Shown here piece after piece: positions 865 through 54,283 of a DNA stretch of 64,000 nucleotides. A program made the position numbers and the translations under genes. The notes under the pieces are model-generated. The model was not told the origin of the DNA. It saw nothing but the letters and a program-made list of their open reading frames with translations, and ran no database searches. Numbering within the stretch: the stretch's first letter is position 1; the number at the start of each line of letters is the position of its first letter. Where the stretch lies: NCBI GenBank assembly GCA_028101095.1, contig JAOHKG010000001.1:1332-65331 (forward strand), in the 5' to 3' direction. This DNA comes from Fidelibacterota bacterium (GTDB lineage: Bacteria; Fidelibacterota; Marinisomatia; Marinisomatales; UBA1611).

Positions 865-2010
865 ATGAAAAAACTTTTTTTTAATTTATATTTTCTTTTA
901 TCTATAAATCTTTTTGCTGATTTTTCAGAAGTTGGACCATATGAAGTAGAGATAACAACATCTGTGATTACATTACCAAATGGTGACGAAACACAATATA
1001 GAATTTTTCTTCCTAATAACCTTATAGATGCTCCTCATGTTATTTTAGCACATGGTTTTGTAGGTTCTCAAGATTTTTTATTTGAATTATCAAAGCACTT
1101 TTCTAGTTGGGGATTAAAAGTTGCTACTATTGATTTAATAAATTCCAATCTTCTAAACAATAATCCTCTAAAAGATGCTGAGGACTTAGTCTATCTATCA
1201 AATGAAGTCTTTGGAGGTGGGGAAGTAATATATGCTGGCTATTCTTCTGGAGGGTTAAGGGCATTGATATCTACTTCTTTAGATTCAAATTCAATTGCAT
1301 ATTTAGGATTAGATATTGTAAATAGTGAGGGCTTAGCTGAATATTATATTCAAAATAATTTAATTCCTTTTTATGGCTTGGTTGGAGAACCCTCCGTATG
1401 TAATTCACAGGGTAATAGTGTAGATGTTTTTAGTCTCGCTTCTAACTCGCAGCTTTTGAGAATAACAGAAGCTGATCACTGCGACTTTCAAAACCCTGCA
1501 AGCTCTCTATGTGCTCTTTTATGTCAAATTGATAATATGGATTTTTCTTCAGATCAAATAAATATAGTTCTTAAAAATCTTTCGACCTCTTTTTTAGTTT
1601 GGCAGGCTAATCTAGATGCTGATGGATTAAATTTTTGGACCTCAGGATATGCAAGCTATGATAATATGATAAATAATGGTTCAATAAGTGATTTAGTCAA
1701 TTTAAGTGTTTTAAGCGATGAGTTAGCTCCAGATAATTTTGATTTATATAAAAATTACCCGAACCCTTTCAACCCAACTACTCAAATTAGATTTGATATT
1801 AAAAATAGATCTATGATAGATGTTAAAATATATGATTTAGAAGGGAGCGTAGTTAAAAATTTATTTTCAGGTATTAAAAATATTGGTAATCATACAATAA
1901 AATGGGATGCTAATAACAATATGAATAGTCCACTTCCTTCAGGTATTTATTTTTGTCTTATTAAATCTGGTAATCTTAAAAAAGTAAATAAAATGACTTT
2001 AATAAGATGA
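865..2010 (+). CDS. secreted alpha/beta hydrolase (dienelactone hydrolase/cutinase-like) with a T9SS C-terminal sorting domain
   Basis: The N-terminus is hydrophobic and signal-like. HVILAHGFVG...WGLKVATIDL and a GYSSGG nucleophile elbow (GxSxG) are present, with a possible His in EADHCDF. The last ~85 aa (NYPNPFNPTTQIRFDI...IYDLEGSVV...WDANN...SGIYFCLIKSG...KMTLIR) form a FlgD-Ig/T9SS type sorting domain. Confidence 0.7.
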   Translation: MKKLFFNLYFLLSINLFADFSEVGPYEVEITTSVITLPNGDETQYRIFLPNNLIDAPHVILAHGFVGSQDFLFELSKHFSSWGLKVATIDLINSNLLNNNPLKDAEDLVYLSNEVFGGGEVIYAGYSSGGLRALISTSLDSNSIAYLGLDIVNSEGLAEYYIQNNLIPFYGLVGEPSVCNSQGNSVDVFSLASNSQLLRITEADHCDFQNPASSLCALLCQIDNMDFSSDQINIVLKNLSTSFLVWQANLDADGLNFWTSGYASYDNMINNGSISDLVNLSVLSDELAPDNFDLYKNYPNPFNPTTQIRFDIKNRSMIDVKIYDLEGSVVKNLFSGIKNIGNHTIKWDANNNMNSPLPSGIYFCLIKSGNLKKVNKMTLIR

Positions 2011-51894: not shown

Positions 51895-52848
51895 ATGATT
51901 CAAAAATATTATTTAGAATTTGAAAAACCATTTAAATCGCTCGATGAAGAGATTTTAGAGCTTGAAAGTAATCATAACCCAGACCAAAAATTATTAACTA
52001 AGCAATATAATAAAAGATCTGAGTTAATAAAAAAAATATATTCAAGACTTAGTAGATGGGAAAGAGTCCAATTAGCAAGGCATCCAAATCGTCCATATTC
52101 AAAAGATTATATAGAGTTTTTCTCACCAGATTTCATTGAATTACATGGAGACAGATACTTTAGAGATGATCCAGCTGTTGTTTCTGGTATAGGACACTTC
52201 GATGATTTTAAAGTTGCATGGATTGGTCAACAAAAAGGTAGAAACACAAAAGAAAACTTATATCGGAATTTTGGGATGATGAGACCTGAAGGTTATAGAA
52301 AAGCAATAAGGGTAATGAAGATAGCTGAAAAGTTTAATCTACCAATCATCTCTCTTTTGGATACTATTGGAGCTTATCCTGGTATTGGTGCAGAGGAGAG
52401 AGGGCAAGGCGAAGCAATAGCTAAAAATTTAATTACAATGTCAGGAATAGAAGTACCAATAATATCAGTTGTTATTGGGGAAGGAGCAAGTGGAGGAGCT
52501 CTAGGAATTGGGGTCTGTGATAGAATGTTAATGATGGAAAATACATGGTATTCTGTAATCAGTCCTGAGGGTTGCGCATCAATTCTTTTTCGAGATGCGA
52601 AAAGAGCTGAAGATGCAGCAGAGGCATTAAAGCCAACACCAAAAGATTTGTTAGAGATAGGTATATGTGATAGGATTATTGAAGAGCCAAATGGAGGAGC
52701 ACATCGTGATTTTGAAGCATCATGTAATTCCTTGAAAAATGTTTTGCTTGATGAGATAAAAAAGCTCTCCTCTGTTGATAAAAAAGATTTTCTCCAAAAT
52801 AGAATAGAAAAATATGCTGCACTAGGTTTCTTTGAAGAAATTTCCTAG
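51895..52848 (+). CDS. accA: acetyl-CoA carboxylase carboxyltransferase subunit alpha
   Basis: The 317-aa ORF carries ARHPNRPY, DTIGAYPGIGAEERGQGEAIA and VIGEGASGGALG. Confidence 0.95.
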   Translation: MIQKYYLEFEKPFKSLDEEILELESNHNPDQKLLTKQYNKRSELIKKIYSRLSRWERVQLARHPNRPYSKDYIEFFSPDFIELHGDRYFRDDPAVVSGIGHFDDFKVAWIGQQKGRNTKENLYRNFGMMRPEGYRKAIRVMKIAEKFNLPIISLLDTIGAYPGIGAEERGQGEAIAKNLITMSGIEVPIISVVIGEGASGGALGIGVCDRMLMMENTWYSVISPEGCASILFRDAKRAEDAAEALKPTPKDLLEIGICDRIIEEPNGGAHRDFEASCNSLKNVLLDEIKKLSSVDKKDFLQNRIEKYAALGFFEEIS

Positions 52849-53255
52849 TGCAGCATAAATTCCAAACAAAAGTTTATTATAAAGATATTGACCAAATGGG
52901 AGTTGTCTACTACTCACGATATTTTGAATATTTTGAGCAAGGAAGAACTGAGCTTCTAAATTCAATCGGACTCAATGTTTCAGAAATAGAAAACCAAGGT
53001 ATCTTTTTGCCCGTTGTCCTAGCCCATTGTGAATATAATAAGGGAGCAAGGTTTGAAGATAAAATCACAATAATATCAAAGATTAATGAACTTCCAAAGT
53101 CTAGATTAAAAATTAATTATTTAATAACAAAATATGATCCCATTGAAAAAATTGCTTTTGGCTTTACTGAGCACGCATTTATGAAAAAAAATGGTAAACC
53201 GACAAGGCCACCTAAAATAATTTTTGATTCAATTAAACACAATCTGGAAGCATGA
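52848..53255 (+). CDS. acyl-CoA thioesterase (4HBT/YbgC hotdog family)
   Basis: The 135-aa ORF has a GTG start overlapping the accA stop. VYYKDIDQMGVVYYSRYFEYFEQGRTE carries the catalytic Asp region. Confidence 0.8.
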   Translation: MQHKFQTKVYYKDIDQMGVVYYSRYFEYFEQGRTELLNSIGLNVSEIENQGIFLPVVLAHCEYNKGARFEDKITIISKINELPKSRLKINYLITKYDPIEKIAFGFTEHAFMKKNGKPTRPPKIIFDSIKHNLEA

Positions 53256-54283
53256 AGTTTAAGTTTTTATTATTTTCTTTTTTCTGCTTTCTTTTAAGCT
53301 GTGATTCAAAGCTTGCTTATCCATGGATTACTGTTTCAGACTTAGATCAAGTATTTAAAATAGCTGGTGATAAATTGGTATTAATTGATTTTGAGACTGA
53401 ATGGTGAACATGGTGTGATCGACTGGATGTTGATACTTTCAATGATGATAAAATCAAAAAATTTGCCAATGATTATTTATTAAGCATAAAAATTGATGCT
53501 GAAAAAGGAATTGGTCCAGAAATTGCAAAACGTTTTAATATTCGAGGTTATCCAACCATAGTTATTGCTAATAATAAGGGATATGAAGTTGATAGAATTG
53601 TTGGGTATTTAAGCCCTGATAGTTTTTTAAAAGGACTTCATCGAATTAGAAAAGGAAAAAATACAATATCCTCACTTTTAAATAAATTTCAATCAAATCC
53701 AAATAATTTCAACACACTTTTTAATCTAGCAAAAAAGTATGAAGGGAAAGGAGATATTGCCTCTGCAAACAGAATGATTAATGCAATTCTAGCTGCAAAT
53801 ATAGACTCATCCGGGGTTGCTTACTTTTTTTCAATTTTATATGAAGCACGTGAAAAAGAAGATTCTGAAAAACTCTTAAAATATGTAGAAAACAATCCAG
53901 AAAGTAAAAATATAAAAAGAGCAATCTCGGAGGCTATGTTTTATGTTCGTAAAAAAGGAGTAAATAAAAAACTTGAATCTGAACTTTTTTTAAAATTAAT
54001 TAATCTAGATGACAAAGTATCTCTGAATCTGATTAATAGTTTTTCTTGGAGAATGAGCGAGTTAGAGTTAAATCTTGAAATCGCGTTGCAAAAAATTAAC
54101 TATGCAATTGAAAATGTTAAAGATATGGAACAAAAACATATGTTTATTGATACTAAGGCTGAACTATTTTATAAAATGAAGAAATTTGAATCTGCATTGA
54201 AAGAAATAAAAAAATGTATTAAATATGATTCTGATAATGAATACTATAATAGCCAGTTTAAAAAAATAAATAATCATATATAA
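53252..54283 (+). CDS. thioredoxin-fold lipoprotein with a C-terminal helical/TPR-like domain; contains one in-frame TGA (53405-53407) at the first Cys of WCxxC, making it a candidate selenoprotein (or a very recent pseudogene)
   Basis: ATG 53252 overlaps the upstream stop (ATGA). The lipoprotein signal is MKFKFLLFSFFCFLLSC. The Trx fold reads LVLIDFETEW-[TGA]-TWCDRLD...IKIDAEKG...RGYPTIVI...RIVGY. The same frame stays open for 292 more codons to TAA 54281-54283. The ORF track reports only 53774-54283. Confidence 0.55.
53418..53434 (+). promoter_or_regulatory. candidate bacterial SECIS-like hairpin downstream of the in-frame UGA
   Basis: AUCGAC-UGGAU-GUUGAU forms a 6-bp stem (one G-U pair) with a 5-nt loop containing GG. 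The stem starts 11 nt after the UGA and the loop starts 17 nt after it. The structure is short and AU-rich, so it is weak evidence on its own. Confidence 0.3.

Follow-up and report, generated by a model that had tools for sequence, protein, structure and literature searches.

We analyzed a 64-kb stretch of DNA from a bacterium of the low-GC (guanine plus cytosine) Marinimicrobia (Fidelibacterota, SAR406), referred to here as the window, and find it very probable that positions 53252–54283 hold one intact, functional gene encoding a selenocysteine (Sec)-containing protein, predicted from its sequence to be an exported thioredoxin-TPR oxidoreductase. The list of open reading frames (ORFs) of the window covers this gene only as two fragments, one of 51 amino acids (53252–53407) and one of 169 amino acids (53774–54283). 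The UGA that ends the first fragment, at 53405–53407, would be decoded as Sec, and a hairpin that starts 11 nucleotides (nt) after it, with a UGGAU loop 16 nt after it, would act as a bacterial Sec insertion sequence (SECIS), while UGA elsewhere in the genome would terminate translation. The features of the predicted gene are as follows:

53252–54283 (+): predicted complete selenoprotein gene of 343 residues with Sec at position 52 and a TAA end; full-length Cys homologues of 343–349 amino acids align with it end to end

53252–53302 (+): predicted signal peptide with lipobox, MKFK-FLLFSFFCFLL-S-C17, in which Cys17 is the predicted lipidated first mature residue

53372–53632 (+): predicted thioredoxin-fold domain, DsbD-gamma/DsbH-like, residues 41–127, with the U52-T-W-C55 motif and cis-Pro101 (YPT)

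53405–53407 (+): in-frame TGA, the predicted Sec codon, which takes the N-terminal, attacking place in the CxxC motif

53414–53416 (+): predicted resolving Cys55 of the UxxC motif, codon TGT, Cys in every relative shown

53413–53416 with 53435–53438 (+): possible lower stem of the hairpin

53418–53434 (+): SECIS-like hairpin core, AUCGAC[UGGAU]GUUGAU, with the 5′ arm at 53418–53423, the loop at 53424–53428 and the 3′ arm at 53429–53434

53660–54280 (+): predicted all-helical TPR-like C-terminal domain, residues about 137–343, as placed by the structural model of a homologue

Translation reproduced the frame that had been proposed in a preliminary description of this DNA. The start codon ATG at 53252 overlaps the stop of an upstream thioesterase gene (TGA, 53253–53255) as ATGA, and the frame from there runs over 344 codons with a sole internal stop, the TGA at codon 52, before the final TAA at 54281–54283. 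All peptides quoted in that description are present verbatim in the translation. The long stop-free run that it had pointed out after the TGA is also real, although it consists of 291 sense codons, with the figure of 292 given there including the stop. The window is densely coded at a GC content of 31.2%, and TGA is, as had been claimed, a normal stop in it, ending 14 of its 44 long ORFs. When both strands of the window were scanned for pairs of ORFs linked through one in-frame TGA, this gene was the only one returned.

The codon at this position was then compared across relatives taken from a genome scan with one genome per bacterial species, in which 403 genomes encode a relative and the best 80 were kept. 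The relatives are labelled mostly Candidatus Neomarinimicrobiota, Marinimicrobia or Fidelibacterota, all names for one phylum (taxid 62680, FCB group), with about half carrying only the label 'uncultured bacterium' and a few carrying others. Two closed Fidelibacterota chromosomes, CP070656.1 and CP070638.1, have the gene in its TGA form. The codon aligned to 53405–53407 was extracted by its tblastn column; locating the motif by regular expression was noisy or missed divergent loci. Among 79 species-level relatives, whose protein identity to the window protein ranges from 62% down to 29%, this codon is TGA in 60, TGC in 11 and TGT in 8, and is never anything else. Protein-level conservation extends to either side of the TGA (DFETEW-U-xWC), none of the related loci contains a second in-frame stop that would point to decay, and a signal peptide is found in most of the predicted relatives, a few having short predicted N-termini. 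On a neighbour-joining tree, Fitch parsimony reconstructs a Sec root and requires at least 13 switches between Sec and Cys.

Closer to the window, six independent ENA assemblies of the same population from different samples (L082–L087) all have TGA at codon 52, and none has TGT or TGC in its place. Their copies of the gene differ from that of the window by 1–4 single-nucleotide polymorphisms elsewhere in the gene and contain no other stop. A relative at 84% identity (L081) also has TGA at this codon. The real stop is itself TGA in 16 TGA-form genes, comprising 15 relatives and L081, which also speaks against a reassignment of UGA. These comparisons bear out what the preliminary description had placed at this locus, an in-frame UGA at the nucleophilic Cys of a thioredoxin-fold lipoprotein: the TGA stands at the first Cys of W-C-x-W-C, in a column that holds only Cys codons or TGA (60 relatives and the window).

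We examined the RNA after the TGA in an alignment of 61 TGA forms, which is free of gaps around the site and contains 59 distinct Sec forms. The Sec forms share AUCGGC[UGGAU]GCCGAU. RNAalifold predicted the four upper pairs of this hairpin, which form in 58–59 of the 59 distinct Sec forms, and all four show compensatory changes (C-G to U-A, G-C to U-A, and G-C to A-U, U-A or U-G). When a 10-bp structure was specified by hand, 87.3% of cells paired in the Sec forms against 21–47% in slid controls; seven of its pairs show double changes, and none of 500 shuffles reached the observed values. The loop bases UGGA are invariant in the Sec forms, including the synonymous third base of a Leu codon, whereas that base varies freely in the Cys forms. 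Across 19 Cys forms, 57% of cells pair in the 10-bp structure, and the four upper pairs form in 32–63%. The bacterial SECIS that the preliminary description had suggested looking for after the TGA therefore has a counterpart in a conserved, covarying hairpin, which lies at the expected position in the Sec forms and is mostly absent from the Cys forms. The 59 distinct sequences make a clean, covariation-supported example of a candidate bacterial SECIS embedded in a coding sequence.

One Cys form is an exception to this distribution. At L060:10133–10183 the codon is TGT, and the Sec-type hairpin is intact (CGGC UGGAU GCCG), which suggests a recent Sec-to-Cys switch after which the SECIS has yet to decay.

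The stem also dictates part of the protein, as the last residue of R-L-D-x is Ala, Val, Ser or Asn depending on the pairing partner of the Arg codon. Two codons that are rare in the AT-rich window go into the hairpin, CGA with 9.5% of the Arg codons and CTG with 3.2% of the Leu codons. A published model of the bacterial SECIS (bSECIS) specifies a loop of 3–9 nt, an upper stem of 4–16 bp, a G in the first two loop positions, a spacing of 16–37 nt, and a minimum free energy of −7.5 kcal/mol or lower (PMC13188914). The window hairpin, with a 6-bp stem, a 5-nt loop with G at positions 2–3, and 16 nt from the UGA to the loop, falls within the loop, stem, G-position and spacing ranges of this model. 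The hairpin energies of the relatives run from −7.0 to −12.7 kcal/mol, and the closest genome relative (L001) has a hairpin of −12.7 kcal/mol with z = −3.06. No Rfam family matches the hairpin.

At the protein level, the N-terminus MKFKFLLFSFFCFLLSC reads as a lipoprotein signal by pattern (regular expression plus inspection by eye), with the charged n-region, hydrophobic run and lipobox Cys17 that agree with the lipoprotein signal reported earlier. Of 71 full-length predicted relatives, 51 match a strict regular expression for the lipobox, and most of the others can be seen by eye to end the h-region in Cys; about 7 of the 71 have a signal that lacks the Cys. With or without the signal Cys, the protein is predicted from sequence to be exported.

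The thioredoxin fold claimed for the region that follows was recovered by two Pfam families, both above the Pfam gathering threshold when Cys was placed at the TGA. Thioredoxin_2 (PF13098) matches residues 41–127 with E=1.2e-12 and 48.5 bits against a cut-off of 27, and Thioredoxin (PF00085) matches with E=3.6e-9 and 37 bits against a cut-off of 23.5. The cis-Pro of the YPT motif is likewise retained, with P101 and T102 invariant in 27 sequences. In a search of the family profile against solved structures, 2kuc was matched with E=2e-26 and DsbD-gamma with E of about 1e-16. The structure modelled was that of P0006, a Cys homologue 60% identical to the window protein (AlphaFold2, mean predicted local distance difference test score of 92.3). 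This model has a thioredoxin fold at residues 24–134, with the redox motif at the start of helix 53–62, and then 12 helices after residue 139. Foldseek against the PDB matched its thioredoxin domain to 2kuc with a template modelling (TM) score of 0.81, to DsbD-gamma with 0.73–0.76 and to DsbH with 0.68, all target-normalised. Its C-terminal domain matches consensus-TPR superhelices with TM scores, normalised to the query, of 0.43–0.45, and all Pfam TPR matches are below cut-off (TPR_20, E=0.08). Together, the 12 helices and the consensus-TPR match in this model agree with the helical TPR-like domain of the preliminary description.

These data bear on several other ways in which an in-frame stop could have arisen. 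A recent nonsense mutation in a Cys-type thioredoxin-TPR gene, with the downstream frame still open, would be in keeping with the splitting of the gene by gene callers, and in a genome of 31% GC the frame past the stop could briefly stay open by chance. However, TGA is shared at this codon by 60 of 79 relatives whose identity has fallen to 29–62% without a second in-frame stop, TGA is at the family root by parsimony, and compensatory changes have preserved a hairpin that is particular to the TGA forms, so that a pseudogene is highly improbable. TGA is also one base from TGT, TGC and TGG, and the true codon might have been one of these before a sequencing or assembly error, but the probability of this is negligible given TGA in six independent assemblies that differ at 1–4 other positions of the gene, in L081, and in 60 genomes. 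Hardly any probability attaches to a genome-wide alternative genetic code in which UGA is Trp or Gly (table 4 or 25). Six database entries (P0001–P0003, P0005, P0007 and P0020) do read E-W-W-T-W-C in a table-4 translation, yet the homologous column is Cys and never TGG or Gly, the table-4 call of P0002 overruns its true TGA stop to end in HIWP, and in a densely coded window where 14 of 44 long ORFs end in TGA there is a single in-frame-TGA candidate in 64 kb, which upholds the earlier exclusion of UGA reassignment. Finally, ORF callers and many N-truncated database entries present the locus as two separate genes, a 51-residue lipopeptide and a protein from an internal downstream start. This arrangement is very improbable, as the thioredoxin fold (strand beta1, CxxC helix and cis-Pro loop) spans the TGA and neither fragment would therefore fold alone, the Cys-form homologues are single proteins of 343–349 amino acids colinear across the site, and no gene would account for the conserved in-frame sequence of about 370 nt that separates the TGA from the called downstream start. 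Because of the relatives' codon column, the single stop, the six assemblies and the stop usage together, we regard sequencing error, recent decay, a split gene and code reassignment as excluded at the level of sequence.

An unlikely explanation that nevertheless keeps a small share of the probability is selenium-free read-through of the UGA, in which a hairpin-stimulated near-cognate tRNA (Cys or Trp), or competition with the release factor, would give a Cys or Trp protein, for example in lineages without Sec machinery. Several observations count against Sec here, and the first three of them would suit read-through. Searches with ARAGORN, with Rfam at gathering thresholds, and with regular expressions for the SelD N-terminus, the SelA pyridoxal phosphate site and the SelB G1 motif found no selA, selB, selD or tRNA-Sec in the 64-kb window or in the ∼1.2 Mb flanks of 80 related loci, an absence that is uninformative because sel genes need no linkage to their target. 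The Sec trait has been defined by homologues of SelD, SelA and SelB, and three SAR406 single-cell genomes have an orphan SelD only, whereas two others, JGI 0000039-D08 and SCGC AAA003-L08, have all three proteins and are Sec-utilising, their known selenoproteins numbering 1 and 5 (Peng et al. 2016, PMC5029168); since single-cell genomes are incomplete, an orphan SelD is weak evidence of absence. The window hairpin itself is weak, and its 42-nt segment has a minimum free energy of −6.6 kcal/mol (ensemble −8.3), short of the −7.5 kcal/mol of the bSECIS model, with z of −0.11 against shuffles and values that depend on the segment. The hairpin belongs to the minimum-free-energy fold of this segment, but its energy is indistinguishable from that of shuffled sequence, and the case for it therefore rests on the comparative data. 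In addition, the lower two base pairs of the 6-bp stem, in alignment columns 20–36 and 21–35, do not form in about 36–41% of the Sec forms. On the functional side, no DsbD/CcdA, Msr or peroxiredoxin gene adjoins the target in the window neighbourhood, and the proposed assignment as a reductase with a client-binding TPR domain is drawn from analogy of fold. Set against read-through are the alternation of UGA solely with Cys codons at the catalytic nucleophile, which is the signature of Sec/Cys pairs, the match of hairpin geometry and G-containing loop to the SelB-dependent bSECIS model, the SelA, SelB and SelD proteins and selenoproteins of the two Sec-utilising SAR406 genomes, and the co-occurrence of a classical SelW-like Sec gene with the target on one contig.

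That contig (L075) carries a TGA form of the target together with a SelW-like gene at 1527–1757 (+), which has 76 codons and matches Pfam Rdx (PF10262) with E=6.8e-19. The motif of this gene is C-V-V-TGA, the classical C-x-x-U, and a hairpin with a G-first loop lies 22 nt after the TGA (−7.6 kcal/mol). Judged by these sequence features, it is a second, classical selenoprotein gene in the lineage. The flanks of the relatives gave 43 raw candidates with an in-frame TGA, which were mostly noise, with only this one and possibly one on L062 looking real. The latter, at L062:2236–3300 (−), is a frame of 354 codons that encodes a signal peptide and is interrupted once by an in-frame TGA, within N-A-S-W-TGA-P-A-C, which is UxxC-like. 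It has no Pfam match at E<=0.01 and an unremarkable downstream fold (−7.5 kcal/mol, z +0.3), and it could represent either a further secreted selenoprotein or a gene that has decayed.

In the mechanism that we infer for the Sec-encoding gene, the hairpin would recruit SelB carrying Sec-tRNASec to the ribosome paused at the UGA, and Sec52 would take the place of the attacking Cys of W-C-x-W-C in the DsbD-gamma/DsbH-like thioredoxin domain, with Cys55 resolving the selenenylsulfide. The protein would then be an envelope-facing, probably lipid-anchored selenol/thiol-disulfide reductase, with a reducing rather than an oxidising activity. Electrons may be supplied by a DsbD/CcdA-type transporter that keeps the protein reduced, and the TPR-like domain would presumably bind client proteins or a partner.

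UxxC thioredoxin-fold selenoproteins are the commonest kind of bacterial selenoprotein. One such family, with the representative WP_011366075.1, is listed as 'Trx-like 2, cd02953 (DsbD-gamma), UxxC' in the Global Ocean Sampling (GOS) selenoproteome (PMC2398784) and in Table 1 of a 2026 review (PMC13188914), and by its predicted domain and motif the target falls under this heading. The two share PF13098 as best Pfam domain and a DsbD-gamma-like subtype, a UxxC motif with Sec at the attacking position, abundant Cys homologues, and a SECIS inside the coding sequence. Compared by its description, the listed family differs from the target in that the latter adds a lipoprotein signal and a TPR-like domain of about 200 residues. 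GOS marine reads of the target gene may already have been counted under this heading.

The closest solved thioredoxin domains are those of DsbD-gamma, Chlamydia DsbH (2ju5) and 2kuc, a putative disulphide isomerase of Bacteroides thetaiotaomicron, all of them envelope thiol-disulfide oxidoreductases, as is proposed for the target. We take the x-W dipeptide of the target motif to resemble the DsbH active site. Unlike the target, these proteins use Cys and lack a TPR domain, and in DsbD the gamma domain is anchored to a membrane electron transporter. The corresponding NCBIfam scores are far below cut-off, at 50 bits against 330 for DsbD and 28.5 against 190 for DsbH. The best NCBIfam match is TsoB (NF045694), with E=4.6e-16 and 58 bits against a cut-off of 805. 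This match is made through the C-terminal DsbD-like thioredoxin domain of TsoB and covers only the last 98 of 572 profile positions, and membership in TsoB was rejected as the score lies far under the cut-off and both the architecture and the Sec motif (UxxxxU) differ. The model PDO_seleno_TRX (TIGR02187) scores 13.3 bits against a cut-off of 185, and no NCBIfam selenoprotein model reaches its cut-off for the target protein.

In overall architecture, the target, which would be located in the cell envelope, parallels the cytoplasmic thioredoxin-TPR protein YbbN/CnoX (E. coli, PDB 3qou; Salmonella, 3qdn), as both have a thioredoxin fold at the N-terminus and a TPR helical domain at the C-terminus. 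The E. coli structure 3qou is the top Foldseek match of the P0006 model by E-value (6e-7, 281 aligned columns). However, the identity is 16%, the TM score 0.23–0.29 and the root mean square deviation 21 Å, so that the domains match while their arrangement differs. YbbN is also cytoplasmic, whereas the target has an export signal and a lipobox, and YbbN is not among the 60 chains listed in the PDB profile search. E. coli YbbN is not known to have a CxxC motif. The relation to YbbN/CnoX thus appears to be one of analogy and not of membership.

None of the papers found, among them selenoprotein reviews, a database paper and a tool paper, mentions a thioredoxin-TPR selenoprotein or one from Marinimicrobia. 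The architecture of lipobox, thioredoxin domain and TPR domain, and the phylum-wide distribution with Sec predominant, appear to be undescribed. A tentative extension, which we regard as possible though not quite probable, is that the target represents an undescribed phylum-wide family of envelope-anchored thioredoxin-TPR selenoproteins, in which Sec is ancestral and predominant (∼3/4 of species) and has been replaced by Cys at least 13 times. If this is true, one of the most abundant bacterial phyla of the dark ocean would have this protein as a recurrent selenoprotein, and the availability of selenium or the oxidative regime in different ocean habitats could be recorded in the Sec/Cys pattern. 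Selenium use in Marinimicrobia would extend to the cell envelope, and the apparent ancestral Sec with repeated Sec-to-Cys replacement would offer a usable natural system for studying when the use of Sec repays its cost. The understanding of recoding mechanisms is unchanged by this gene, which would be an unsurprising addition for a selenoprotein specialist.

A protein search gave 42 homologues in three groups. The first group consists of full-length Cys forms of 343–349 amino acids with W-C-x-W/P-C, and the second of the six full-length entries with W at the site named above, which are public metagenome gene calls and translations of the TGA by genetic code 4. For one of these, P0002 (L081:330–1367), the DNA has TGA at the site. 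The third group comprises many entries of 262–285 amino acids that start just after the thioredoxin motif. Such N-truncated entries include NCBI- and JGI-sourced ones, and the P0025 cluster, with 326 member sequences, has 267 residues; the catalytic half is missing from protein databases because the cluster entries are truncated calls. At least 403 species-level genomes contain this gene, which is routinely split, N-truncated or translated with the wrong code, and hundreds of records would be put right by a curated model with provision for Sec. A further entry, P0008 (270 amino acids), is 99% identical to the target over about 200 residues and then continues as unrelated sequence, and is probably a chimeric or frameshifted short contig.

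Two genes precede the target in the window:

51895–52848 (+): accA, preceding the thioesterase gene

52848–53255 (+): 4HBT-type thioesterase gene (Pfam), whose TGA stop overlaps the target ATG

At least 35 related loci from divergent Marinimicrobia preserve the order accA, 4HBT thioesterase, target, together with strand and spacing. Co-transcription is suggested by the ATGA overlap between thioesterase and target in the window. The conserved gene order suggests no redox partner, and no functional link is evident from it.

Two further observations concern the source of the DNA. The assembly collection contains the AccA protein of the window in identical form in 76 blocks, and the contigs that carry it reach about 82 kb. 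This indicates that the source population is abundant and was assembled repeatedly from different samples. At the other end of the window, an ORF of 381 amino acids at 865–2010 (+) has a C-terminal part (...YKNYPNPFNPTTQIRFDI...GIYFCLIKSG...) that by eye resembles a type IX secretion sorting domain, a likeness that would fit an organism of the FCB group.

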